NCBI GenBank assembly: GCA_015232365.1
Contig: JADFZU010000005.1
Span: forward strand, 19,683-83,682
Length of the DNA stretch: 64,000 nucleotides
Direction of reading: 5' to 3'
DNA from: Magnetococcales bacterium
GTDB lineage: Bacteria; Pseudomonadota; Magnetococcia; Magnetococcales; JADFYX01
Shown here piece by piece: positions 1 to 60,324 of the stretch (its first letter is position 1; every line of letters begins with the position of its first letter). The notes under the pieces are model-generated. The model saw nothing but the letters and a program-made list of their open reading frames with translations, was not told where the DNA came from and did not search any database. Both the position numbers and the translations under genes were made by a program.

Positions 1-1030
1 TGGTGATAGCAGCAAAAGGCTTATTTTAGGCATTGATCTAGGGACATCTCTTACAGCAGTAATGTCTAACCGGGGCAAGAGAGCTTTGGTTGGTTCGGTA
101 GTTGGCTACCCTAAAGATGTTATTGCGACAAAGCTGCTCAATAGTATACTGGTAATTGGTGATGAAGCGTTAAGCAAACGCTCCTATCTCAATCTCTACT
201 TTCCACTTGAAGATGGGGTGTTGAAAGAGGCTAGTGTCACGCATACCATAGCAGCAAAAGAGCTGTTGGAGAGGGCGATTGCCGAGATTGATCCCCAGCC
301 TGGAGATCAGATATACGGTATTATTGGTGTTCCGGCTCGTGCTTCGGTTAGTAATAAGAGTCAGCTATTAAAGCTGGCTGGTGAAATGATGGACAAGGTG
401 ATGGTGGTCTCTGAGCCGTTCATGGCTGCTTATGGTCTTGAGAGGCTGACCAACGCTATTATTATAGATATTGGTGCCGGTACAGTTGATTTTTGTGCCA
501 TGAAGGGGACTGTTCCAGGTTCAGAAGATCAGATAACCCTGCTCAAGGCAGGTAACTTTATCGATGAACTGTTGGCTGCAAATATTAGCGAAGCCTACCC
601 GGATGTGCAGATTACCAAGCAGTTAGCCAAAAAGATTAAAGAGCAATACGGCTATGTGGGAGAGGTTAGAGATGATGTTATTGTCACTCTAAGGGCGGAT
701 GGCAGGCCACATAATTATGATCTTGGTCTGGAGGTGCGTGATGCATGTGCTGCTATTTTACCGGATATTTTTGAGAGTTTGGAGCAGTTAATCCAGGTTT
801 TTGACCCAGAATATCAAGAAGAGGCATTGCAGAATGTTATTCTTGCTGGGGGAGGAAGTCACATAATCGGTTTAAGAGAGGCGGTGGCTGAATTTTTACA
901 GGATTATGGTGAGGCCAATGTAGTTCGGGTCACAGATCCTGTCTACTCTGGGGCTGCCGGAGCATTAAAATTGGCTTGTGAGTTGCCGCCTGAATATTGG
1001 CATGAGGTTGGTGATGTATTTGGTGATTAG
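1..1030 (+). CDS. mamK: Actin-like magnetosome filament protein MamK (5' end lies outside the window)
   Basis: The frame of ORF 62-1030 stays open back to base 2. The upstream in-frame residues GDSSKRLILGIDLGTSLTAV supply the actin-fold phosphate-1 motif, so the listed Met is internal. Later motifs are IIDIGAGTVD (phosphate-2) and VILAGGGSHIIGL (adenosine). SVVGYPKDVI...VIGDEA...YPLEDGVL matches MamK as I remember it. mamL/mamM/mamQ-like genes follow. Confidence 0.85.
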   Translation, partial: GDSSKRLILGIDLGTSLTAVMSNRGKRALVGSVVGYPKDVIATKLLNSILVIGDEALSKRSYLNLYFPLEDGVLKEASVTHTIAAKELLERAIAEIDPQPGDQIYGIIGVPARASVSNKSQLLKLAGEMMDKVMVVSEPFMAAYGLERLTNAIIIDIGAGTVDFCAMKGTVPGSEDQITLLKAGNFIDELLAANISEAYPDVQITKQLAKKIKEQYGYVGEVRDDVIVTLRADGRPHNYDLGLEVRDACAAILPDIFESLEQLIQVFDPEYQEEALQNVILAGGGSHIIGLREAVAEFLQDYGEANVVRVTDPVYSGAAGALKLACELPPEYWHEVGDVFGD

Positions 1031-1065
1031 TACCTGAATCCGTGATGTCCTGGCAGATTCAGGTA
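1031..1065 (+). terminator. Perfect 10-bp stem-loop immediately after the mamK stop (possible intra-operon attenuator)
   Basis: tacctgaatc (1031-1040) is the exact reverse complement of gattcaggta (1056-1065), with a 15-nt loop. A T-rich tract follows (gtggttttacctttgtttatttt). Confidence 0.4.
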
Positions 1066-1132
1066 GTGGTTTTACCTTTGTTTATTTTAATAAAACAGTG
1101 TCGAGATTGTTTTCTGAGTTTTGACACTTGAA

Positions 1133-1171
1133 CCTATTTTCGGTACTAATAACTGCTTGATCTAGGTTAAA
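1133..1171. repeat. Degenerate short copy of dispersed repeat family R1 (both arms, almost no spacer)
   Basis: cctattttcggtact resembles the R1 left arm (ctagattcggcagttg). ctgcttgatctaggttaaa (1153-1171) matches 18550-18568 at 18/19 positions and resembles the R1 right arm at 3391-3410. Confidence 0.45.
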
Positions 1172-1189
1172 CAATAGAGGAATTTAGTA

Positions 1190-1411
1190 GTGGTCAGGTT
1201 AGTTGTTTCCCTGCTTTTCGCTATATTTTTGCTGATATTTGCCTCCCAGAATATGCATGAGATTGTGGTGCGTTTTGTTTTTGGCGAGCCGGTAGAGATG
1301 CCAATGATTTTGGCTGTTGCCGGTGCTTTTGTCTGTGGATTTGCTTTGGCTATTTTTACCATTCTAGTACGTAGCGGTGATAAAAAAGGTGCCGATGAAT
1401 TTGATTATTAA
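1190..1411 (+). CDS. mamL: Small two-TM membrane protein, MamL-like (LapA/DUF1049-like topology)
   Basis: 73 aa with a GTG start 9 nt after agagg. There are two hydrophobic helices and an ASQN...RF motif typical of LapA-like proteins. The N-terminus MVRLVVSLLF...ASQNMHE..RF resembles MamL as I recall it. Its position between mamK and mamM is the canonical K-L-M synteny. Confidence 0.5.
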   Translation: MVRLVVSLLFAIFLLIFASQNMHEIVVRFVFGEPVEMPMILAVAGAFVCGFALAIFTILVRSGDKKGADEFDY

Positions 1412-1429
1412 CCTGGATACTTTGCTGCT

Positions 1430-2389
1430 ATGAGGTACTCTCAATGTGTTGTTTGTAATGAGACAGTAGGCTGGATTAGCCTTATGGCTAATCTTGCTAT
1501 GTCGACACTAAAGCTGTTTATCGGAGTCATCTCTGGTTCCCACGCTCTAGTTGCCGACTCTCTCTACTCTGCCAAAGATGTTGTCACCTCATTGATCATC
1601 ATTGTCGGGCTTAAAATATCCAAGCAGCCTATTGATCAAGAGCACCCTTTTGGTCATGGTAAAATCGAGTTTATTCTGGCTTTGGTTGTTAGTCTTATTC
1701 TGGTTTTGCTTACTGGTATTCTCTTCTATTTTGCTACTGAAACCCTATTGGAAGGCAAACATACCGCTCCTCACCTTATCGCTTTGTGGACTGCACTTTT
1801 ATCTATTGCGGTAAATATCTTCATGTTCCGGTTTACCCGTTGCGTCTCCTTGGAAATCAATAGTCCGGTTGTCGGAGTTATCTCAACCCACCATATGGCT
1901 GATGGCCTATCATCAATCGCGGTGGCTTTAGGTATTATAGGCTCCCACTATCTTGGTATGCCTTGGTTGGATACGGTGGTTGCTATTGGTGAGGCTCTAC
2001 ATCTAATTTATCTTGGCGGTGATGTTTTCTGGAATGCTTTTAAAGGGTTGATGGACACTTCTGCCCCTAAAGAGACCATCGGTGAAATCAATAGAATCGC
2101 CAGAGAGTGTTCTGGAGTGGAGAGCATTGAGCAGGTTCGTACCCGTTATGTCGGCCAGGAGTTGTGGATCGATATGACCATTGGAGTCAACCCAGAGCTC
2201 TCTGTCGGTTCGGCAAAGGTTATTAGCCGTAGGGTTGAAGAGCAGTTGGCAACCCATATACCACATGTTGGAGATGTTGGCTGTCATTTTTATGCTCGAC
2301 CTGGTTCAGTGCCGGAGATGGTAGAGTTAAAGCAGGATATATTACAGTTAACTAGTGAAGATAGTGAGGAAAAACCTGAGGATCGATAA
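1430..2389 (+). CDS. mamM: Cation diffusion facilitator, MamM-type magnetosome iron transporter
   Basis: CDF hallmarks: six TM helices, HPFGHGKIEF, and a C-terminal cytoplasmic domain (RTRYVGQELWIDMTIGV). N-terminal CVVC. TM2 has ADSLYSAKD and TM5 has HHMAD, the Y-xxx-D / H-xxx-D quartet I associate with MamM rather than MamB. Blocks PHLIALWTALLSI and AVALGIIGSHYLGMPWLD closely parallel MamM. Confidence 0.75.
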   Translation: MRYSQCVVCNETVGWISLMANLAMSTLKLFIGVISGSHALVADSLYSAKDVVTSLIIIVGLKISKQPIDQEHPFGHGKIEFILALVVSLILVLLTGILFYFATETLLEGKHTAPHLIALWTALLSIAVNIFMFRFTRCVSLEINSPVVGVISTHHMADGLSSIAVALGIIGSHYLGMPWLDTVVAIGEALHLIYLGGDVFWNAFKGLMDTSAPKETIGEINRIARECSGVESIEQVRTRYVGQELWIDMTIGVNPELSVGSAKVISRRVEEQLATHIPHVGDVGCHFYARPGSVPEMVELKQDILQLTSEDSEEKPEDR

Positions 2390-2467
2390 GATACAAAATC
2401 TGTACTTTTGGTGTGATTTTTATAAAATCCCGGGAATGAATTTTAATCTTTTGGAGTTGAATAGATA

Positions 2468-3274
2468 GTGGCAGATAAAGACACATTAGAGTTGGATGAT
2501 TTGGGGCCTAACTCAGCTAATAGCGAGCGTATGCGCCGTATGAAGCGGATGATGCGTGAACTCTACAAGGATGAGTTCGAAACTAAACGGTTTCGTATGC
2601 CGCCAATCAAGGCCAGATCTTTAATTGTTTTTTTGTCATTTGCCTCTATCATCATTTTTGGTGTTACCACACTCTATAATTTCAACCGTTTTGTTAATTT
2701 GGAAGAGCGGGTTCTTAATGCTGAGGGATTTGTTGAAGCTGTTTTGCAAAGGCGGATTAATCTCTTCTCCAACTTGATAAACTTAACCCTCAACCAAGCA
2801 GCACTTGAGCAGAATATTTTTCGTCATGTAGCTAATGTACGCTCTGATATTGGCGAGGGGATGGCTAATAATCAGGCTGGTGCAGAGGTAGGAAAACCTC
2901 TACCAGAATCTGGTTCTGGAGTGGAGTCTACTGCTGGTATGGATAAAATCACCGGTGTTCCCAGCATGGCAAAACTTCTTGCTGTTGTTGAGCAGTATCC
3001 AAAAATCCGTACCTCTGTAACTTATCAGCAGTTGATGGATAAACTTGTTGAGATTGAAAACCGAATCGCCAAACGCAGGGACGAGTATAATGAGGAGGTG
3101 AGGATTTACAACACCTTGATCTCATCTTTTCCATGGTATGTTTTAGCTAGGATTACCGGATTTAAACGTCATGAGTATTTTGATCTGCGTAATGTTGATA
3201 AAGCCAAGAGATTTAAGCTTCCTGATGTCTCCAAGCATGAGTTTAAACGGTTGCTGCCGATACCTGAAAGGTAG
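2468..3274 (+). CDS. mamQ: LemA-family membrane protein, MamQ
   Basis: GTG start, one N-terminal TM helix (LIVFLSFASIIIFGVTTLY) and a LemA-type body (RINLFSNLINL..., EQYPKIRTS..YQQLMDKLVEIENRIAKRRDEYNEEVRIYNT..SSFPW). It sits directly after mamM in a mam context. Confidence 0.7.
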   Translation: MADKDTLELDDLGPNSANSERMRRMKRMMRELYKDEFETKRFRMPPIKARSLIVFLSFASIIIFGVTTLYNFNRFVNLEERVLNAEGFVEAVLQRRINLFSNLINLTLNQAALEQNIFRHVANVRSDIGEGMANNQAGAEVGKPLPESGSGVESTAGMDKITGVPSMAKLLAVVEQYPKIRTSVTYQQLMDKLVEIENRIAKRRDEYNEEVRIYNTLISSFPWYVLARITGFKRHEYFDLRNVDKAKRFKLPDVSKHEFKRLLPIPER

Positions 3275-3287
3275 CAGTGCTTTTTAC

Positions 3288-3404
3288 CTAGATTCGGCAG
3301 TTGTTTGTACGTCACTTGTACAACCTCATGATTTACCTGGCAAACCATAAAAAAACAAATATGCTTGCTATGCCATTAATGCACGTCCAACTGCCGAATA
3401 TAGG
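3288..3404. repeat. Dispersed repeat family R1, full palindromic copy (also the likely mamQ/tolA convergent terminator)
   Basis: attcggcagttg (3292-3303) is the exact reverse complement of caactgccgaat (3388-3399), with 84 nt between the arms. CTAG/TAGG flank the arms. The internal ccattaatgcacg recurs at 41321-41333, and in reverse complement with 2 mismatches at 20310-20322. Confidence 0.65.
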
Positions 3405-3444
3405 TTAGAACAAGAGCATATAACTGAAAAGGTAATGAATTTTA

Positions 3445-4359
3445 CTACTCTTCTGTAGGTCTAAAGACAAAGTCCAGTGATCGGCACTCTTTGCAGCCTC
3501 TAGGCGGAGCTTCAACAGTCGTGGTCTTATGGATGGCTCTGAGAACAGAGCGGTCGTAAATTATGTTGCCTGATCCTTGAACAATTGCGGCATTCTGTAG
3601 TGAGCCGTCCGGGCCAACCGCAACTCTAACCACAACTTCCAACTCAAACTCATTACGCAGACCGCCAGGTTTTGTCCAGTTGTTGCGAACCTGCAGTCTT
3701 AGCTTACGCTGCCACAAGGCAATGGAGAGGCGGGAGGCTTTGGGAGCCGCTTTTGGTTGAATTTTGGCAGCATCTTTTTTAGATTTGTTAAATTTGGCAA
3801 TCGCCTTGGAAAAATCTATAGGAGTAGGTTTTTTCTCAACCTTTTTTTTCTTGACTATTTTTTTCTTTACCAGCTTTTTTGGGGCTGGAGTTGCCATTGG
3901 TTTTGGTCTAACCTTAGGTTTGTGGCTGGTCATCTGCAGAGGTTTTTTTGTCTCTTCAGGTTTTTTTATCAGCAATTTTTTTGTAGTTTTAAGCGGAGGC
4001 AGTGGCTCCACTTTTGGTTCTGGTATAGGTTCAACTACCGGTAGAGGCTCAATAACAGGTTCCGGCTCCGGCTCAATAACAGGCTCTGGCTCAACAACAG
4101 GCTCCGGCTCAACAACAGGCTCTGGCTCAACAACAGGCTCTGGCTCAATAACAGGTTCCGGCTCCGGCTCCGGCTCAACAACAGGCTCCGGCGGCTTTTC
4201 TTTTAGAGGTGGGGGTGGTTCTTCTGGAAGTTGTACCAAATTGACGATTAAAGGTTGTTTTTTGTCAATTAGCGGTTTTCCCATAGGTAAATAGACCGCA
4301 ATCAAGGCGATTACAATATGGAGCAGTACCGATCCAAGAATAGATAAGCGGGAGAACAT
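3445..4359 (-). CDS. tolA: TolA-like envelope-spanning protein (N-terminal TM, Pro/Glu repeats, Lys-rich linker, TolA/TonB C-terminal domain)
   Basis: N-terminal anchor [20 protein letters not shown], then (EPxPVVEP)n repeats, a K-rich region and a C-terminal TonB_C/TolA-like fold ([33 protein letters not shown]). It follows tolQ-tolR on the same strand. Confidence 0.7.
4046..4189. repeat. In-frame 18-bp tandem repeat array inside tolA
   Basis: Units ggctcaaYaacaggYtcY at 4046, 4070, 4088, 4106, 4124, 4142 and 4172, interspersed with ggctcc hexamers. On the minus strand they encode [12 protein letters not shown]. Confidence 0.85.
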
Positions 4360-4363
4360 CTGG

Positions 4364-4795
4364 TTAATCAGGTGACTCGGTGACCAGACCGATTTTTTCG
4401 ATGCCAGCCTGTTGTAGATTAGCCATTACCTTCATGACCGCACCATATTCAGCCTTTTTATCTCCACGAACATAGACCGGAAGATTAGGGTTTGTTTTAC
4501 GAATTCTGGCAATTTTATCCTTTAGTTCAGAGATGGTGACCGGATTTTGTTCAATAAAAGCGGTTCCGTCATTGGCAACTGTTACCACCAGTGGTTCGCT
4601 ATTGCTTCCTATGGCTCCGGCCTTTGCTTTGGGTAGGTTTACTTCAACTCCCTGGGTCATAAGAGGGGCAGCTACCATAAAGATGATCAACAGTACCAGC
4701 ATGATATCAACCATAGGTGTTACGTTGATATCGCTCATTGCTTGATAGTTATTATCGGAACCACCACTACCATCAAGGTTTACCCCCATGCTCAT
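4364..4795 (-). CDS. tolR: TolR (ExbD/TolR family)
   Basis: [23 protein letters not shown] signature of ExbD/TolR. 143 aa. Overlaps the tolQ stop by 4 nt. Confidence 0.85.
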
Positions 4796-5496
4796 GATAG
4801 ATCCTCCACGCGGCGAGAGGCTTGTCGTTCTAAAATGTTAAGAAACTCCGCCCCGAAATTATCTAGCTTTTGCTGAAGGCGTCTCATATCAGTGGCATAT
4901 TTATTATAGGCCATAACTGCTGGAATAGCTGCTACCAGACCCATTGCTGTAGCGATAAGTGCCTCGGCAATGCCTGGAGCCACCATGGTTAGAGTGGTGG
5001 TTTTTGCTCCAGCCAAACCTCTAAAGGAGTTCATGATTCCCCAGACTGTACCAAACAGGCCGATAAACGGGCCGGTGGAGCCTACTGTTGCCAGAAAGGT
5101 CAAGCCCTGTCCAACATTGTCCATCTCTCTATTGAGAGCAACGGTCATGGCACGACGAACATTGGGAAGTATCTCTCCTACCTCAGGGTTGTGCTTGCTG
5201 TCGCTTGTCCAGCGTTTCCACTCCCGAAATCCGGTAACAAATACAGCAACAATGGGACTTCCTGGCCACTCGGTAGCGGCAGTTTTATAGAGGCTGGCAA
5301 TGTTGCCTCCACTCCAGAATCTCTCTTCAAACGCAGTGACCACCTTTTTTATTTTTCTAAAGAGCAACCATTTGTGGAGAATAATTCCCCAAGAGGTCAT
5401 TGAGGCAGCCAGTAAGAGCAGCATTACCAGCTTAACTACCGGACCAGCCTGGGCAACCAGATCCCAAATGCTGTGTGAAGCTATGACATCGTTCAT
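4792..5496 (-). CDS. tolQ: TolQ (MotA/TolQ/ExbB proton channel)
   Basis: Three TM helices and the conserved C-terminal block GLTFLATVGSTGPFIGLFGTVWGIM...VAPGIAEALIATAMGL. Confidence 0.9.
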   Translation of the reverse strand: MNDVIASHSIWDLVAQAGPVVKLVMLLLLAASMTSWGIILHKWLLFRKIKKVVTAFEERFWSGGNIASLYKTAATEWPGSPIVAVFVTGFREWKRWTSDSKHNPEVGEILPNVRRAMTVALNREMDNVGQGLTFLATVGSTGPFIGLFGTVWGIMNSFRGLAGAKTTTLTMVAPGIAEALIATAMGLVAAIPAVMAYNKYATDMRRLQQKLDNFGAEFLNILERQASRRVEDLS

Positions 5497-5593: not shown

Positions 5594-6010
5594 TTACAGA
5601 GTCATTGATTCAGGCAATAATGAGAGAAACTCTTGCGGCATTCTGGTCGGCTTGAATTTATCATTGAGCATAGCAATTTTAACAGATGCTCGAACCAACA
5701 CAGAATCATCAGCCTCTCTCTCTATCTTTTGTCTCAAGTTTATGCTGGCTCTCCCCCTTTTGACCAGTGTTACTGAAACTTTGATCTTATCATCAAGCCG
5801 GGCTGGGGCCAAAAATTTAACATCCATTGCGGTTACCGCAAATACCAACCCCTTTTCAGTAGCCAGCTTTCTCTGACCAAAGCCCATTTTGCGTAGCCAC
5901 TCAGTTCTGGCCCTCTCCATAAAATTTAGATATTTGGAGTGATAGACGACACCACCTGCATCAGTATCCTCATAATAGACCTGGATAGGCCAGATAAAGT
6001 TTTTGTCCAT
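5594..6010 (-). CDS. ybgC: Tol-Pal-associated acyl-CoA thioesterase YbgC (4HBT family)
   Basis: VYYEDTDAGGVVYHSKYLNFMERARTEWL hot-dog thioesterase motif. Located between ruvB and tolQ. Confidence 0.85.
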   Translation of the reverse strand: MDKNFIWPIQVYYEDTDAGGVVYHSKYLNFMERARTEWLRKMGFGQRKLATEKGLVFAVTAMDVKFLAPARLDDKIKVSVTLVKRGRASINLRQKIEREADDSVLVRASVKIAMLNDKFKPTRMPQEFLSLLPESMTL

Positions 6011-7054
6011 TTAGAGAAGAACTCCCTGCTCATGATGGGGAACTTTTCGGCCCAAATGGTGGTAAGCTGCCGGAGTTGCTCTCCGCCCTCTTGGGGTGCG
6101 GTCTAAAAGCCCCTGTTGCAGCAGATACGGCTCTACCACATCTTCAATAGTATCTCTGGTTTCACCGATAATTGCCGATAATGTATCCAGCCCCACCGGA
6201 CCACCAGCAAACTTATCTATAATCGCCAACAACAGGCGACGGTCCATACTGTCCAGGCCCCGGTCATCTACCTCTAGAAGTCCTAGAGCTTTATCGGCTA
6301 CCTCTTGGTTGATGTGTCCCGGCCCTAAAACATCAGCAAAATCCCGGACCCGTTTTAATAGGCGGTTGGCTATACGTGGAGTTCCCCTGGACCGTCTTGC
6401 AATTTCTGTAGCCCCGGACTCATCCGTGCCAATATTTAAAATGGTGGCTGAGCGGTTGATAATTTCTGCCAGTTCCGCGGCAGAGTAGAACTCCATTCTG
6501 GCAAGAATACCAAAGCGGTCTCTAAGTGGGCTGGTGAGCATTCCAGCTCTTGTTGTTGCACCGATCAAGGTGAAATTGGGTAGATCAATTTTAATGGAGC
6601 GGGCTGATGGTCCTTCACCAATCATAATATCCAGTTGATAATCTTCCATGGCTGGATAGAGAATCTCCTCTACTGCTGGACTAAGGCGGTGAATCTCATC
6701 AATAAACAGGCAATCACCAGGCTCCAGGTTGGTCAGCAGGGCTGCTAGATCTCCAGCTTTCTCAATTATAGGTCCAGAGGTTGTGCGTAGCCCTGACTCC
6801 ATCTCGGCGGCAATAATTTGTGCCATGGTGGTTTTGCCAAGACCTGGAGGGCCATAAAGCAGTAGGTGGTCCAGGGCCTCTCCACGCCCTTTGGCAGCGT
6901 TTAAAAAAACTGTCAAGTTGGTTTTTAACTGTTGCTGACCGATAAATTCTGTCAGTCGTCGTGGGCGAATATAGGACTCGTTAAGTGGTTCACCCATCTC
7001 TCTATCTGCCGAGATTAGCCGTTGCTGTTCTTCATCTTCGTTAAACACGCTCAT
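6011..7054 (-). CDS. ruvB: Holliday junction branch migration helicase RuvB
   Basis: Walker [10 protein letters not shown], Walker [10 protein letters not shown], and the RuvB C-terminal winged helix ([10 protein letters not shown]...[16 protein letters not shown]). Confidence 0.95.
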
Positions 7055-8166: not shown

Positions 8167-8910
8167 TTAACCAAGTTTTTCCATCACTTCGTCGGGCACA
8201 TCCATATTAGAGTGAACATTCTGCACATCGTCATTATCTTCAAGCATATCCAAAAATTTAAAAAATGATTCGGCACCTTTTTCATCCAGCGTGGTGGTGT
8301 TTTGGGGAATCATGGCCAGCTTGGATGAGCTTGGGTTGTCAAAGCCAGCTTCAGCCAGGTTGTTTTTAACATCTTCAAAATCTTCCGGGCTGGTAATTAC
8401 TTCAAAAACGCCATCTTCAGCGATCATATCTTCTGCTCCAGCCTCTAATGCTGCCTCCATCAAACTATCTTCATCACCATTTTCAAAGATTAGCTGGCCT
8501 TTTTTATCAAACATAAAAGCGACACAACCAGCACTACCCATATTGCCGCCATATTTGGAAAAGATGTGGCGAACATCAGCAACAGTACGGTTGTTGTTAT
8601 CGGTCAGTGTATCGACCAGTACAGCAACCCCACCAGGACCATAGCCCTCAAAACGCACCTCTTTATAGTCAACACCGTCCAGATCACCGGAGCCACGTTT
8701 TACTGCTTTATCGATGGTATCTTTAGGCATATTGCCCTGTCTTGCAGCAATAATCGCAGATCGAAGTCTTGGGTTGGCAGCGGCATCTCCGCCACCAATT
8801 CTGGCTGCTGTGGTTATCTCCCTGATTAGTTTTGTAAAGATCTTGCCCCGCTTTTTATCCTGTGCACCTTTGCGGAACTTAATATTGGCCCATTTACTAT
8901 GTCCTGCCAT
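8167..8910 (-). CDS. yebC: YebC/PmpR family transcriptional regulator
   Basis: MAGHSKWANIKFRKG... is the canonical N-terminus, so the start is at 8910, not 8928. Located upstream of ruvC as usual. Confidence 0.9.
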   Translation of the reverse strand: MAGHSKWANIKFRKGAQDKKRGKIFTKLIREITTAARIGGGDAAANPRLRSAIIAARQGNMPKDTIDKAVKRGSGDLDGVDYKEVRFEGYGPGGVAVLVDTLTDNNNRTVADVRHIFSKYGGNMGSAGCVAFMFDKKGQLIFENGDEDSLMEAALEAGAEDMIAEDGVFEVITSPEDFEDVKNNLAEAGFDNPSSSKLAMIPQNTTTLDEKGAESFFKFLDMLEDNDDVQNVHSNMDVPDEVMEKLG

Positions 8911-9113: not shown

Positions 9114-10877
9114 GTGATCGACCACACCTTGGCTGGTGGTGATTCTTTAGTCTTGATGCCTACTGGTGGTGGTAAATCTCTCTGCTATCAGATTCCATCC
9201 ATGCTTCGTGATGGTGTAGGTATAGTCGTCTCACCGCTTATAGCCCTGATGCGAGACCAGGTTACAGCTTTGCAGCAGAACGGTGTTCGGGCTGCCTATA
9301 TAAACTCCTCTTTAGAGTCCCATGAGGTTGGAGAGATATTTCGGCAGGTACGAATGGGTGAGTTGGATCTGCTCTATGTTGCTCCAGAACGGCTGTTGAT
9401 GGACCACTTTCTAGAGCTACTATCCACCCTTGAAATTGCTCTTTTTGCCGTTGATGAGGCCCACTGCGTCTCCCAATGGGGCCATGATTTCAGGCCTCAC
9501 TATCTGGGCTTGTCCATACTATCGCAACGTTTTCCAAATATTCCACGCATAGCCCTGACTGCGACAGCAGACGAGCCGACCCGTAACGAGATTTTAGAGC
9601 GGCTGAACCTTAAAAGTGCCAACATGTTTGTCGCCGGATTTGACCGGCCCAATATTCGTTATCATGTGCTTCCAAAGGACAGTCCCAAGCAGCAGTTGCT
9701 AAAATTTATCAACTCTGAGCATGAGGGGGAGTCCGGTATTGTCTACTGTCTCTCCAGAAGGCGGGTTGAGGAGACAGCAGACTGGCTGGTGGAAAAAGGT
9801 TGGAACGCTCTGCCCTATCATGCCGGAATGGATAAAGGGACCCGTCAGGAGCATCAAGACCGTTTTTTGCGGGAGGAGGGGGTGGTTATTGTTGCAACAA
9901 TCGCTTTTGGCATGGGGATTGATAAACCAGATGTCCGTTTTGTCGCCCATCTGGATCTACCAAAAAATTTAGAGTCCTACTATCAAGAGACCGGACGTGC
10001 CGGACGGGATGGCCTGCCCTCCAACGCATTTTTAACTTTTGGCATGGATGATATTGCCATGCTTAACAGTTTTATTGATAAATCTTCAGCCGAGGAGCGG
10101 GTTAAGCAGGTCGAAAGGCGAAAGTTGGCGGCAATTATTAGTTTTTGTGAGATTGCCTCATGCCGGAGGCAAGCGTTGATGCACTATTTTGGTGACCAAC
10201 ATCCAGAGCCAACCTGCGGCAACTGTGATAACTGTCTCTCCAAAGTTGAAACCTGGGATGGTCTGGAGACGGCACAGAAGGCTCTATCTTGTGTCTACAG
10301 AACCGGGCAACGTTTTGGTGTTATCTACATAATTGATGTTCTGCTTGGGGTTGTAAACGAGAGGATTATCAATTTTGGCCATAAAAATTTAAGTACCTTC
10401 GGCATAGGTAAAGAGCATAGCCGTGGAGTCTGGCGTTCGGTCTTTCGGCAGTTGACAGGAGCTGGCTATCTTGAGGTGGATTATGAAGGCCATGGTGGTT
10501 TGCGACTGACTGAGAGAAGCCGGGATGTTCTTCGTGGTGAGGTTGAGATTGCTTTTCGTAAAGATGCCAAGCAGATATCGGTCTTTGGTAGTAAGGCAAA
10601 AAATAAAATCAAGAGCAGAACAACAAGCCGAAAGAGAAAAAGCCAAGCTGTTTCTGGCAGTAACAACCCTTTGTGGGATGCCCTACGTTCTATGCGTCTT
10701 GAGTTGGCTAATAAACAGGGGATTCCTGCCTACATGATATTTTCTGATAAAACCATGGATAGCCTGGTTGACCTGAAGCCGAGAAACCTTGATGATTTAG
10801 GCGATGTTTATGGAATCGGAGCCAATAAACAGAAAAAATACGGCAAGGCTATTTTGAAGGTTCTGGCAGGAAAATAA
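9114..10877 (+). CDS. recQ: ATP-dependent DNA helicase RecQ (true start is upstream of 9114 and uncertain)
   Basis: [29 protein letters not shown], the zinc-finger Cys cluster ([11 protein letters not shown]...CGNCDNC) and a C-terminal HRDC domain. Conserved N-terminal residues [20 protein letters not shown] are encoded in frame at 9054-9113, but that stretch has no ATG/GTG/TTG. Confidence 0.9.
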
Positions 10878-10891
10878 CTAGCCGGCATATC

Positions 10892-10926
10892 AAAAAATGC
10901 CCCGCCAATTGACAGGGCATTTTTTG
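10892..10926. terminator. Bidirectional rho-independent terminator between recQ and ppk2
   Basis: aaaaaatgccc-cgccaattgaca-gggcattttttgg: a GC-containing stem flanked by an A-run and a T-run. Confidence 0.7.
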
Positions 10927-10942
10927 GATGCGGTTTTAAAAT

Positions 10943-11803
10943 CTACTTACTTTTTTCTGCACCGTGGAACACTTCAGGAACCCAGGTCTGTTCATCAATT
11001 GGCGGTCTGACATATGATGATCCGGCTTTTCGTGGTGGTAGTTTGATCGGCTTTTTCGGAATCAGATTTTCATAAGGGATCTGGCTTAAAAGGTGGTGAA
11101 TACAGTTTAGGCGGGCATGCTTTTTAACGTCAGCATTAACCACATGCCAAGGAGCCTGTTTAATGTCGGTGTAGGCAAACATAGCGTCTTTAGCTTTTGA
11201 ATACTCTACCCAACGACTACGGGACTCAAGATCCATTGGACTGATTTTCCACTGCTTTGTTGGGTCAAGAGTACGGCTTTTGAAACGACGCTCTTGCTCT
11301 TCATCACTAACTGAGAACCAATATTTGATCAAGATAATACCGGAACGAACCAACATTCTTTCAAACTCAGGGCAGGAGCGAAGAAACTCACGGTACTCTT
11401 CATCGGTACAAAAACCCATAACGTGCTCAACACCAGCTCTATTGTACCAGCTACGGTCGAAAAGTACCATCTCACCTTTTGCAGGCAGGTGGGGAACATA
11501 GCGTTGGAAATACCATTGGCTTTTTTCTCTTTCAGTAGGCGTGCCGAGAGCAACAACTTTGGCAATCCGTGGACTTAATGATTCAGTAATACGCTTGATT
11601 ACACCGCCTTTACCAGCGGCATCACGCCCCTCAAACAGAACAACAACCCGCAGACCTTTCTGGGTGATCCACTCTTGTAGTTTAACCAGCTCAACTTGTA
11701 GTTTGGCTAGCTCTTTCAGATAATTTTCGTTACTGATTTTTTTGTACTCTTTACGTCCAGTAGATTGTGTACCACTCTTTGTCTCAGATTTCTTTTTAGC
11801 CAT
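10943..11803 (-). CDS. ppk2: Polyphosphate kinase 2 (single-domain PPK2)
   Basis: VVLFEGRDAAGKGG Walker A, FDRSWYNRAGVE and the lid region, all typical of PPK2. Confidence 0.9.
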   Translation of the reverse strand: MAKKKSETKSGTQSTGRKEYKKISNENYLKELAKLQVELVKLQEWITQKGLRVVVLFEGRDAAGKGGVIKRITESLSPRIAKVVALGTPTEREKSQWYFQRYVPHLPAKGEMVLFDRSWYNRAGVEHVMGFCTDEEYREFLRSCPEFERMLVRSGIILIKYWFSVSDEEQERRFKSRTLDPTKQWKISPMDLESRSRWVEYSKAKDAMFAYTDIKQAPWHVVNADVKKHARLNCIHHLLSQIPYENLIPKKPIKLPPRKAGSSYVRPPIDEQTWVPEVFHGAEKSK

Positions 11804-12285
11804 TTATTTTTTCTCCAATAAAAAACAGATGTTACCTAATTTGATCTTAAACTATGCAATTGTTGTTAAGACTGCCTTATACCACCACTTACAGATACAT
11901 ATCTAGTGATGAAGATCTTAAATATGATATTGAAAAACTGTGTGCAGGCTTTGTTAGTATTTGATTAACAATAAATTTTCATATTATAAACTGTCTAGAG
12001 CCATTTTGAGGTTAGTGATAATGTTTGTTAGATAAATCAAATAGTTAAGATGTTGTTGTTACGTTTTGTGAAAAAAAAGAATAGGTTAAGGTGTTTAGTT
12101 TATTTATCCATGCATGGACAAACAGCCTGATTCTATTTTTTATATGTGATTTACAAGGCAATTTTACGGATTTTGCTCTTTTTAGATTGCTGAAAGCAGG
12201 TTTTCTTATTAGAATGCACAGTTTGCCATATATGTATTTGGCTGGTGTGGTTAATTCGTTCGATTTAAACAGAAAGGGGATTTCC

Positions 12286-20291: not shown

Positions 20292-20335
20292 CTGGTTTCG
20301 GCAGTTGGGCGTACGTTAATGGTGCAACATATTGG
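20292..20335. repeat. Dispersed repeat family R1, half copy
   Basis: tttcggcagttgggcgtacgttaatggtgcaac aligns with the 3404-3360 reverse complement (attcggcagttggacgtgcattaatggcat) and with 3292-3325. Confidence 0.55.
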
Positions 20336-20467
20336 TTTGTCTGGTAAATCAGAAAAAATCGAATTAACCTTATTGGTGATGAGGCTTTTTCCTGGTTTTC
20401 CCGGTTCATCAAAATATTGTTCCAGTGACGCGGGAATGGTTGGCTTATCTATGGTCAGTAAGCCATT

Positions 20468-22384
20468 ATGAGTTCCAAGATCTTTAACGATGCACTACCT
20501 CCAGGATCAAAACTGCTCTGGTTTGAGATCATTAAAGTTCTTGGCAAGGGTGGTTTTGGAATCACCTATCTTGGCAAAGATACAAAGCAGGATAAGTTTG
20601 TTGCCATCAAAGAGTATCTACCTACAGCTTTTGCCTCTCGCACTGAGGATATGGAAGTGCGTCCCAACTCTCCAGGAGATGCTAAAACCTTTGAATGGGG
20701 GTTGGTGCGGTTTCTTAAAGAGGCACAAATTCTTGCCCGGTTTAAACACTCATCTATAGTTAGGGTAGTCAGCTTTTTCAGAGATAGCTCCACTGCCTAT
20801 ATGGTTATGGAGTATATTGAAGGTAATGGGTTGGATTATGTCTTGAAAAAGAGAAAAACCCTCTCTGAAGATTATATAAAACAGATTCTGCCGCCTCTTT
20901 TAGATGGTCTGCAGATGATGCACAGTGCCAACTTTATCCATCGAGATATTAAACCTCCCAATATCATGATACGTAAGGATGGCAGGCCGGTACTGCTGGA
21001 TTTTGGCTCTGCAAGGCAGTCTGTTGCTGGTCAGGGTGTGGAGATGACTAGCCTTTTGAGTATTGGTTACTCGCCGTTTGAACAGTATGATTCGTCAGGT
21101 GACCGCCAAGGAGCTTGGTCTGATATATATGCTCTGAGCGGTGTGCTCTATCGGGCAATAACAGGTAAAAAACCCCCTGATGCTTCCCAAAGAATAGCCG
21201 CTCGTCTTCGAAGTGATCCCGATCCAATGCTCAGTGCTGTTGAAATGGGAGCCGGTCGCTATGACGAGTCATTTTTAAAGGCAATTGATCACGCTTTAAT
21301 GGTTCTGGAGACTGAGCGCCCCCAATCTATTGCCGAGTGGAGGGTGGAGTTGTTCGGTGCTGTCAAAGATTTAAAGCCAGCACCGGCTTCAAAGTCAGCA
21401 TATACATCTGCTGGTTCCAAAGTTGGAACTCCCAAGAAGAGAAAAAAAAGTAGCTGGCGAAGTTTTATAGCTTCGGTTAGTGAGTTGGGCGGTAATCAAG
21501 AAAATAGAGAGAGCATTACTGCTATTTGTAAGGATGGTATCACTCCTGTAAAGGGTGATGTGAAACGCAAAGTTTCTGTTGCGGCAGATAAAAACCCCCA
21601 ATCTGAGCCTACCCCTGTCTTAGTCGTATCCAAGCCGGAAAAAGAGCAAACTTTAAAAGCAGACGGCAACTGGATTGAGCAGAAAACTAAAATGGAGTTT
21701 ATCTGGGTTCCCGCTGGGAAGTTTATGATGGGGTCCAGAGAGAAAGAGCCTGGACATAAGCCATCTGAAGGGCCGGTGCATGAGGTAGAGTTGGACGGTT
21801 TTTGGTTTGGGAAATATCCTGTTACCTGGGAGCAGTGGCGACAGGTTATGGGAAACTATCCCAGCGGGTTGTTTGATCCGGTCAAAGCTAAACATCCGGT
21901 TGAGCGGGTCAGTTTTTCTGCGATAAATAAATTTTTAAGCCGTTTTTCCAATATTGGGGATGGAGAGAACATCTATCGACTTCCAACAGAGGCGGAGTGG
22001 GAGTATTCCGTTCGTTGCGGAACCAATAACCTCTTCCATTTTAAGGGTGGATCTAAGGAGTTGGCCACTTATGCGTGGTACAAAACCAACAGCGAAGGTG
22101 GAACCCACCCAGTTGGCGAAAAACAGCCCAACAAGTGGGGTTTCCACGACCTGATGGGTAACGTATGGGAGTGGGTTTCAGACTGGTATGGGCAAGATTT
22201 TTATAAAATCAGTCCGGCAAAAAACCCTGTTGGTAAAATGGATGAGAGTAAAAAAAGAGCACTCCGTGGTGGGAGTTGGGCCAGTCCCCCCAAAGAGTGC
22301 CGCTCCGCCAATCGCCAAGGGGTCTCAGAAAAGATAAAAAACAGTATGATTGGTTTTCGGGTGGTTCGGGTTAAACGTAGATAG
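20468..22384 (+). CDS. Ser/Thr protein kinase fused to a C-terminal formylglycine-generating-enzyme (FGE/SUMF1-like) domain
   Basis: Kinase: GKGGFGITY, VAIKE, HRDIKPPNIMI, DFGSAR, GYSPFEQ. C-terminal domain: MEFIWVPAGKFMMGS, YPVTWEQW, LPTEAEWEY, GNVWEWVSDWY, RGGSW....RSANR. Confidence 0.9.
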   Translation: MSSKIFNDALPPGSKLLWFEIIKVLGKGGFGITYLGKDTKQDKFVAIKEYLPTAFASRTEDMEVRPNSPGDAKTFEWGLVRFLKEAQILARFKHSSIVRVVSFFRDSSTAYMVMEYIEGNGLDYVLKKRKTLSEDYIKQILPPLLDGLQMMHSANFIHRDIKPPNIMIRKDGRPVLLDFGSARQSVAGQGVEMTSLLSIGYSPFEQYDSSGDRQGAWSDIYALSGVLYRAITGKKPPDASQRIAARLRSDPDPMLSAVEMGAGRYDESFLKAIDHALMVLETERPQSIAEWRVELFGAVKDLKPAPASKSAYTSAGSKVGTPKKRKKSSWRSFIASVSELGGNQENRESITAICKDGITPVKGDVKRKVSVAADKNPQSEPTPVLVVSKPEKEQTLKADGNWIEQKTKMEFIWVPAGKFMMGSREKEPGHKPSEGPVHEVELDGFWFGKYPVTWEQWRQVMGNYPSGLFDPVKAKHPVERVSFSAINKFLSRFSNIGDGENIYRLPTEAEWEYSVRCGTNNLFHFKGGSKELATYAWYKTNSEGGTHPVGEKQPNKWGFHDLMGNVWEWVSDWYGQDFYKISPAKNPVGKMDESKKRALRGGSWASPPKECRSANRQGVSEKIKNSMIGFRVVRVKRR

Positions 22385-39080: not shown

Positions 39081-39142
39081 CTTGATCATGGAATTGGTTT
39101 ATTTGCTGACCAAGTGAAAATCTAAGCCAGATTATTGTTTAA

Positions 39143-39187
39143 CTTAGATTCTGCAGTTGCTTACTCCACACTATTAATAGCAGCACG
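39143..39187. repeat. R1-family partial copy overlapping the 3' end of the DUF302 gene
   Basis: tagattctgcagttg (39145-39159) matches tagattcggcagttg (3289-3303) at 14/15 positions. attaat....gcacg follows, as in the other copies. Confidence 0.5.
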
Positions 39188-41282: not shown

Positions 41283-41359
41283 CTAGTTTCGGCAATAGGG
41301 CATGAATCAAGAAGATGCACCATTAATGCACGCCAAATTGTCGAATCTAGGATTCTAGG
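41283..41359. repeat. Dispersed repeat family R1, copy with a 35-nt spacer
   Basis: ctagtttcggcaatag (41283-41298) ... ccattaatgcacg (41321-41333) ... caaattgtcgaatctag (41334-41350). About 28/36 identical to 3371-3406. Confidence 0.6.
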
Positions 41360-60096: not shown

Positions 60097-60324
60097 AACA
60101 GGAGACCGTTAAACCTAAATTCGTAAGTAGGATTAGCATTAATGGAGCAACATTTTGCTTTATCTGGTGAAAAAGAAAAAATCGGACTCACCTTTTTTGA
60201 GAAGATGTTTTTTTTTAATTTGCCAGTTGAATCAATGGTTTGTGCCATTGAAATGCGAACTACTTCAGAATCTATATTTAACCTAGGTTGCGTCAGGTAC
60301 GTGGTTGCAACTGGCTCATCCAGG

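Follow-up and report, generated by a model that had tools for sequence, protein, structure and literature searches.

A compact mamK-mamL-mamM-mamQ set, probably a reduced secondary magnetosome gene cluster, in an uncultured magnetotactic coccus

Introduction

The magnetotaxis islet (MIS) of Magnetospirillum magneticum AMB-1 is a partial set of paralogues of magnetosome (mam) genes that lies away from the main island, and its MamK-like protein is transcribed and polymerises (Rioux et al. 2010, PMC2818848). Multiple copies of mamK occur in the magnetosome gene clusters of 'Etaproteobacteria', including ER1bin7, a member of the genus considered here (Lin et al. 2018, PMC5955933). In cocci, MamK copies that are more than ~67% similar have been linked to double chains, whereas less similar copies have been linked to twisted, partial or dispersed arrangements, and a 'mamAB-2' set has been recognised as a remnant of operon duplication (Liu et al. 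2022, PMC9840458). Here we analyze a 64,000-nucleotide stretch of contig JADFZU010000005.1 (assembly GCA_015232365.1), hereafter the window, from a metagenome-assembled genome (MAG) of an uncultured magnetotactic coccus of the order Magnetococcales. Its first 3,274 nucleotides hold four intact, co-oriented open reading frames (ORFs) on the + strand, in the order mamK, mamL-like, mamM and mamQ. We propose, at a probability of roughly 65%, that positions 1-3274 are a reduced secondary gene set of the mamAB type that exists beside a main cluster; this estimate applies to the structural and evolutionary part of the proposal.

The formation of magnetosomes serves as a model for the biogenesis of bacterial organelles, and both the minimal gene set and the genes of chain architecture have been tested mostly in Magnetospirillum. 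Uncultured cocci that carry several clusters provide independent evolutionary evidence, and reduced copies show which genes are kept after a cluster has been duplicated.

Results

Four magnetosome genes at the edge of the window

We assigned the first ORF (positions 1-1030, + strand) to a mamK paralogue, encoding an actin-like filament protein, on the basis of the MamK model NF040964 and an alignment with PDB entry 5LJW. Its frame is open from base 2 to a stop codon at 1028-1030, with the ATG at position 62 lying inside it, and the window edge trims about five codons, as judged from model position 1 of NF040964 falling at residue 7 and from the 5LJW alignment beginning at chain residue 6. If the contig began at this same point, an assembly break at a repeat would be suggested. 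The NF040964 score was 489.9 bits (cutoff 400), compared with 507-511 bits for the canonical MamKs of relatives, and the rival models scored 218 bits (BeeR) and at most 63 bits (MreB models). Against the PDB MamK 5LJW the window protein scored 383 bits. The motifs DLGTS, VVSEPF (SEPF), DIGAGT and AGGGS (GGGS), which we take to be the nucleotide-binding (catalytic) motifs of the actin fold, are present.

The second ORF (1190-1411, + strand) encodes a 73-residue protein that occupies the MamL position, matches the Pfam family LapA_dom (1.6e-7) and has two hydrophobic segments by hydropathy, consistent with two transmembrane (TM) helices. With the MamL equivalog model NF040988, which is based on Magnetospirillum, it scored 17.3 bits and did not reach the cutoff of 100; the 73-residue proteins in the MamL position of canonical Magnetococcales clusters likewise fall below it, at 25-30 bits. 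With the proteins at the corresponding position in four clusters of relatives (loci L001, L003, L081 and L082 of the survey described below), the window protein shares 75-85% identity, and it should properly be named MamL-like, or a positional counterpart of MamL.

The third ORF (1430-2389, + strand) encodes a cation diffusion facilitator (CDF) that we identified as a MamM paralogue with NF033615. The CDF_MamM score was 410.1 bits, against 233 for CDF_MamB, 176 for MamV and 124 for FieF (the MamM and MamB cutoffs are both 350), and the protein falls within the MamM clade of the genus. Both lines of evidence indicate MamM rather than MamB, which answers the placement check proposed in a preliminary description of this locus. 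Residues D43, Y46, D50, H154, H155 and D158, presumably the CDF transmembrane metal site, are invariant across 16-17 MamM sequences, the window copy included.

The fourth ORF (2468-3274, + strand) encodes a MamQ paralogue of the LemA family with one TM segment (Pfam LemA, NF040966). Its NF040966 score of 243.9 bits lies just under the cutoff of 250, a threshold that does not separate it from the mamB-adjacent MamQs of the clade (250.2, 243.0 and 246.8 bits). Over its full length it is 66-73% identical to the MamQ of L001, L003, L081, L082 and L083, with which it groups at 100% bootstrap within the clade, and homology runs to ...FKRLLPI, so that only the variable C-terminal tail is gone.

Internal stops are absent from all four genes. 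The best matches of the window proteins were MamK, MamM and MamQ of Magnetococcales at 61-84% identity, and not the generic CzcD/FieF, LemA or MreB proteins that the preliminary description had named as the contrary outcome; its account of four co-oriented mam genes at these positions agrees with the model scores as well as with the best matches. All four proteins fall inside a genus-level clade, with bootstrap values of 0.94-1.0 for MamK, MamM and MamQ. We regard the four, on the strength of their sequences, as genuine magnetosome genes. The closest MamMs to the window copy (76-84% identity) come from the MAGs of Lin et al. 2018 and 2020, which belong to the family UBA8363 and genus GCA-2753565 of the GTDB taxonomy, and the host is evidently an uncultured magnetotactic coccus of that clade. 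Accessions run gene by gene along the window: MBF0357370 (MamL-like, named 'LapA family protein' at NCBI), MBF0357371 (identical to the window MamM and named 'MamM [Magnetococcales bacterium]', on a 92,128-bp contig), MBF0357372 (MamQ, named 'LemA family protein'), MBF0357375 (TolQ) and MBF0357377 (RuvB).

Gene order compared with canonical clusters

We annotated ~80 loci around MamM relatives by tblastn, with the proteins of the closest cluster as queries (L001; nJSW_bin1, JADFZS010000061). About 50 loci from Magnetococcales and magnetotactic gammaproteobacteria follow the order H-I-E-(J-like)-K-F-L-M-(N)-O-P-A-(large MamA-like TPR)-Q-B, where TPR denotes a tetratricopeptide repeat protein; L001 itself reads H-I-E-J-K-F-L-M-N-O-P-A-TPR-Q-B. 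In none of these ~50 related loci does mamQ directly follow mamM, and mamF lies between mamK and mamL in all loci that have both genes, save L025 and L052. Set against this canonical layout, the window is without mamF, the complete N/O/P/A/TPR block, mamB and everything beyond. The preliminary description had rightly reported that mamQ follows mamM after 78 nt and that N/O/P/A are skipped, for which tblastn found no matches in the window. Its reference, the Magnetospirillum order K-L-M-N-O-P-A-Q-R-B, was the wrong comparator for a lineage in which mamF sits between mamK and mamL and a large MamA-like TPR gene precedes mamQ, and it missed that mamF is absent as well.

Searches with tblastn, blastn and tblastx place the absence of mamF in the spacer between mamK and mamL (1031-1189), which is 159 nt long and lies where relatives carry the 327-nt mamF. 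By blastn, homology to relatives stops at the mamK stop codon and restarts at ~1173-1175, 15-17 nt before the mamL start. The spacer between mamL and mamM is 18 nt. At the junction between mamM and mamQ (2390-2467), which stands in place of mamN, mamO, mamP, mamA and the large TPR gene, blastn homology stops just before the mamM stop and restarts at 2451, 16 nt before the mamQ start. No remnant of mamF was found in the window by tblastn with MamF or in the K-L spacer by tblastx, and no remnants of the lost mam genes were found in the three spacers (tblastn, tblastx). When the H, I, E, F, N, O, P, A, TPR and B proteins of a close relative were used as tblastn queries, nothing was found in the 64 kb, where only K, L, M and Q matched. 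Since mamB, mamI, mamE and mamO, which a self-sufficient cluster needs beside mamM, mamQ and mamL, are not found within the 64-kb window, the four genes would be insufficient for magnetosomes on their own.

Part of this arrangement recurs in a metagenome contig from the Joint Genome Institute (JGI; sample 3300072015), which has a K-L-M run without mamF, an identical 18-nt L-M spacer and a MamL-like protein 93% identical to that of the window. At least four different mam contigs of the genus (2679, 3244, 5688 and 9422 bp) come from this sample; three are of the canonical type (with mamF, and with N-O where the contig reaches that point) and one carries the F-less K-L-M. When metagenomes were scanned with MamQ, the relatives recovered were all at the 40-49% level.

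Other departures from the common order were seen in the survey. L051 (JADGBN010000037, nTS_bin2; 185-4300 and 9709-11900) and L030, both from gammaproteobacterial (Thiohalomonadales) MAGs, have a compact L-M-O-like-Q-B arrangement without K, F, N, P or A, with two L-M-O sets within 10 kb in L051. Magnetococcus sp. DMHC-6 (L020, L050) has a second locus, E-x-M-A, beside its canonical cluster. The large TPR proteins (724-1104 residues), encoded just before mamQ in L001 (14716-18030), L082 (10421-12829) and L087 (8573-10747), match the MamA model with their C-terminal 200 residues at 131-136 bits (cutoff 200), and L001 carries the large gene in addition to an ordinary MamA of 221 residues.

A second mam locus in the same assembly

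A second MamM (P0258, MBF0357299) and a MamB (P0250, MBF0357306) are encoded together on one 93,113-bp contig. Their accessions lie 65-72 below those of the window genes (MBF0357370-372), and the 93,113-bp and 92,128-bp contigs are neighbours in the length-sorted assembly; we judged 'same assembly' by such adjacent accessions, and 'same genome' by MAG binning. The distance from mamM to mamB on the 93,113-bp contig is seven genes, the same as in the M-N-O-P-A-TPR-Q-B segment of L001. The search for the missing genes in this assembly covered MamB; among the 120 best MamB matches, all with at least 54% identity, none lies on the 92,128-bp contig. We infer that this single assembly has mam genes at two places: a locus of canonical appearance, and the window with its K-L-M-Q set. 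What looks like a complete main cluster, mamB included, is located on another contig. The two contigs would derive from one cell.

These findings bear on the two alternatives that the preliminary description had left side by side, a secondary islet and a sole minimal cluster whose remaining genes lie upstream. According to the latter, the window would show the 3' end of the only, rearranged cluster, with mamB, mamE/O, mamI, mamP and mamA upstream on the same contig. More genes may indeed lie upstream, given that the window begins within mamK, and the JGI relative has a further + strand gene that ends 79 nt upstream of its mamK. Split or rearranged clusters also occur among relatives: L005 (JADFWT010000009) ends after mamM, and L013 (PEAO01000070) has its O-P-A block inverted after mamM, so that it reads A-P-O. 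The MamB results point the other way, however, with no MamB match on the 92,128-bp contig and with a MamB of neighbouring accession on the 93,113-bp contig, which also has a second mamM, spaced as in canonical clusters. A second mamM in the assembly means a second gene set, not one rearranged set. We consider a sole cluster very unlikely; it is unsupported for mamB, while mamE and mamI may still lie upstream. The secondary islet is the alternative that the data favour.

Reduced clusters in a congeneric genome

The MAG nER1_bin6 (GCA_015232865.1), which belongs to the same genus and has an estimated contamination of 1.7%, contains three mamAB-type clusters. L081 on contig 21 is canonical (I-E-K-F-L-M-O-P-A-Q-B-S-T), L087 on contig 6 reads I-E-x-K-F-L-M-N-O'-TPR-Q-B, and L082 on contig 20 reads I-E-x-K-F-L-M-TPR-Q-B. 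The O' of L087 (8199-8390) is an ORF of 63 residues that matches the N-terminal 63 residues of MamO at 75% identity, and this stump is a deletion scar. The DNA of L082 and L087 is 87-89% identical, and both have lost O-P-A, one of them also N. The clusters of nER1_bin6 make up a deletion series, with the window set as its most reduced stage. A shared origin of the window set with L082 and L087 was considered and rejected, with bootstrap values of at most 0.21 in all four protein trees; because no tree groups them, the reductions in the window and in nER1_bin6 were independent.

Age and constraint of the window copy

Identity between the window MamM and P0258, the second MamM of the assembly, is 83%, compared with 91% between P0258 and the MamM of a different MAG and species. 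A clade of four canonical MamMs from four populations excludes the window copy with 97% bootstrap. These identities and this clade show that the window copy is no recent duplicate but either an old paralogue or a gene acquired from a congener.

Nonsynonymous divergence (dN) is far below synonymous divergence (dS) for the window genes, but dS is saturated (0.6 to >3, or undefined) and dN/dS ratios are therefore uninformative; relative-rate tests were used in their place. Compared with the canonical MamKs of the genus, the window MamK has an identity of 61-68% in every case, whereas the canonical copies reach 68-92% among themselves. In Tajima tests it had 45-51 lineage-specific changes against 20-28 in canonical copies, an approximately twofold difference (p = 0.0007-0.02), with L081 as the exception. 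MamL, MamM and MamQ showed no rate asymmetry relative to canonical copies, leaving MamK as the only one of the four with a significant acceleration.

These data allow a second reading to be weighed, namely that the four genes are a decaying, functionless remnant of a duplicated cluster and have stayed intact only for want of time. The progressive loss of F, N, O, P, A, TPR and B, the deletion series with its MamO stump in nER1_bin6, and the faster evolution of MamK are all compatible with decay. The copy is old, though, as its position outside the clade of canonical MamMs and its saturated dS indicate, and despite this age none of the four ORFs is broken and the catalytic and binding motifs are in place. 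The equal rates of MamL, MamM and MamQ also speak against decay, as does the fact that the deletions spared ~16 nt ahead of the mamL and mamQ starts, and a second population, that of the JGI contig, retains the F-less K-L-M. We therefore regard a functionless remnant as unlikely, although it is the least improbable of the three explanations that would set aside the reading we prefer.

Boundary and genomic neighbourhood

The outer edge of the mam genes is marked by a palindromic intergenic repeat of ~120 nt (3286-3405), resembling miniature inverted-repeat transposable elements (MITEs) or repetitive extragenic palindromes (REPs). Further copies occur in the window at 20297-20430 and 60112-60274 (- strand), with a half copy at 41320-41351 and weak ones at 39135-39162 and 1143-1171, and in nER1_bin6 at 8-76, 4085-4137 and 11824-11934 of L081 and at 5844-5870, 6935-7052, 8832-8897 and 18941-19103 of L082. 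The element, ~120-175 nt in size with terminal inverted repeats near CCTAGATTCGGCAGTTG...CAACTGCCGAATCTAGG, is thus common to the source MAG and nER1_bin6, and it is frequent in the spacers of magnetosome clusters. The RNA fold of the 3286-3405 copy has an energy of -37 kcal/mol (z = -4.85). Such a repeat may have been a recombination substrate for the deletions.

A spacer of 170 nt separates the end of mamQ from the first convergent gene. Pfam and NCBIfam matches identify a TolA-like gene (3445-4359), tolR (4364-4795) and tolQ (4792-5496), all on the - strand, followed by genes for a YbgC-type thioesterase, RuvB, RuvA, RuvC and YebC, which are likewise convergent to the mam genes (- strand). 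The preliminary description had the cluster ending against a housekeeping operon with nothing after mamQ, and this convergent tol-ruv block, together with the absence of mamB from the window by tblastn, bears it out. The TolA-like protein contains a long proline/glutamate-rich tract of EPEPVV/IEPEPV units, encoded by eight overlapping copies of a tandem repeat with an 18-nt period (4022-4194).

The remaining 60 kb of the window carry genes of core functions, among them those for Tol, Ruv, RecQ, PPK2, TIM, an ABC-F protein, Amt, GlnA, LolA, MiaB/RimO-type enzymes, RarA, an AddAB-like nuclease/helicase, PepN, LpxB, LpxI, LpxA and FabZ. No transposase, integrase or tRNA was found in the 60 kb downstream of the mam genes, nor any Rfam family at the boundary, and scans for promoters and terminators gave background levels only. 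The mam part has a GC content of 0.432, against 0.436 for the remainder of the window. The downstream side, which is the side seen here, shows none of the features expected of a horizontally acquired segment, such as deviant GC, transposases or phage genes. The protein encoded at 20468-22384 (+ strand) is a fusion of a Ser/Thr protein kinase and an FGE-sulfatase domain; proteins with PEGA and FGE-sulfatase domains are encoded just downstream of the reduced clusters of nER1_bin6 (17365-18759 in L082, 15644-16872 in L087), which may be coincidence.

The neighbourhood also helps to evaluate an artefact of binning or assembly, in which the 92-kb contig would come from another, related coccus, or K-L-M-Q would be a chimeric join of co-occurring strains. 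The source is a MAG, the JGI sample with its several mam contigs of the genus demonstrates that related populations can co-occur, and the M-Q and Q-tolA junctions lack independent confirmation. Yet both contigs are longer than 90 kb, and contigs of such length are usually binned reliably; the mam part matches the rest of the window in GC content, and the repeat that follows mamQ has three further copies among the housekeeping genes of the window. The F-less K-L-M with its 18-nt L-M spacer is moreover reproduced in an independent assembly, and the congeneric nER1_bin6, with its low contamination, also holds three clusters. An artefact seems to us improbable, at a level only slightly above that of a sole rearranged cluster.

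Discussion

We propose that the window copy would descend from an arrangement of the type ...K-F-L-M-(N)-O-P-A-(TPR)-Q-B... by internal deletions that took out mamF, all of the N/O/P/A/TPR block, and mamB with whatever followed it. The surviving genes would have stayed intact, co-oriented and tightly packed, with ~16 nt retained before the mamL and mamQ starts, and the reduced copy would now sit in an ordinary chromosomal neighbourhood, with an apparently complete cluster elsewhere.

Several points weigh against this proposal. The two closest MAGs, nJSW_bin1 and nwag_bin5 (85-87% complete), yielded no orthologue of the islet. The ~2x faster evolution of MamK could mean relaxed constraint. The assignment of both contigs to one cell is drawn from MAG binning. 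Other genes, such as mamE or mamI, may precede mamK in the upstream part of the contig (0-28 kb), and the M-Q and Q-tolA junctions were seen in this one assembly only.

Genetic work in Magnetospirillum has established that MamK positions the chain, that MamM stabilises MamB, and that MamL and MamQ act in membrane formation. If the four genes form a reduced secondary set, their products could act on magnetosomes built by the main cluster. The divergent second MamK might form, or co-form, a filament that positions the chain or chains, the second MamM might pair with the single MamB as its iron-transporter partner, and the extra MamL-like and MamQ proteins might contribute to the magnetosome membrane. 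We infer these accessory roles, and the expression of the four genes, by analogy. If K-L-M-Q is expressed, a second MamK filament system and an excess of MamM over MamB are predicted.

A broader and more tentative idea, which we consider possible though rather doubtful, is that K-L-M-Q is a selected minimal accessory module: the mamAB-type clusters of the genus would have been repeatedly duplicated and then trimmed, with selection retaining extra copies of the filament protein and of the factors for membrane and iron transport (K, L, M and Q) to tune the number or geometry of chains or the number of magnetosomes. The core of protease, magnetochrome and TPR protein (O-P-A, here also B) would then be needed only once per cell. 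If this were true, the natural deletion series of the genus would reveal the magnetosome functions that are sensitive to copy number. For surveys of MAGs there is also a practical implication, in that counting matches to mamK, mamM or mamQ can overestimate the number of complete clusters.

The proteins of the window have been deposited and partly named, and partial duplicate mam sets and multicopy mamK are a known kind of feature. The compact K-L-M-Q composition, its setting among core genes without marks of mobile elements, and the within-genus deletion series are not described in the literature cited here.

Among described systems, the canonical cluster L001 is similar to the window in that the four shared genes have the same orientation and relative order, at 65% (MamK), 85% (MamL), 84% (MamM) and 70% (MamQ) identity, and differs in that the window is without F, N, O, P, A, TPR and B. 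The reduced clusters L082 and L087 of nER1_bin6 resemble the window set in belonging to the same genus-level clade, in being extra mamAB-type copies beside a canonical one, and in having lost the O-P-A core by internal deletion; in contrast to the more reduced window set, they retain mamI, mamE, mamF, the large MamA-like TPR gene and mamB. The mamAB-2 sets and multicopy mamK described in earlier studies (Du et al. 2019, PMC6819731; PMC5955933; PMC9840458) are comparable as partial mamAB duplicates and extra mamK genes that have been proposed to shape chain number and geometry in cocci, although mamAB-2 is made of genes such as mamE, mamJ and mamO, and a K-L-M-Q set has not been described in that literature. 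The MIS of AMB-1 likewise has mamK-like, mamL-like and mamQ-like genes, and its diverged MamK paralogue (54.5% in the MIS, against ~61-68% to congeners for the window) is still a competent actin-like protein. The islet differs in comprising seven genes (K, D, L, J, E, F and Q-like) spread over 22 kb amid transposases and phage genes, with no mamM, and it has a lower GC content and was judged to be horizontally acquired, whereas the GC content of the window set equals that of its flank. The set described here, by comparison, consists of four genes including mamM, in operon order within 3.3 kb, in a host of the order Magnetococcales.

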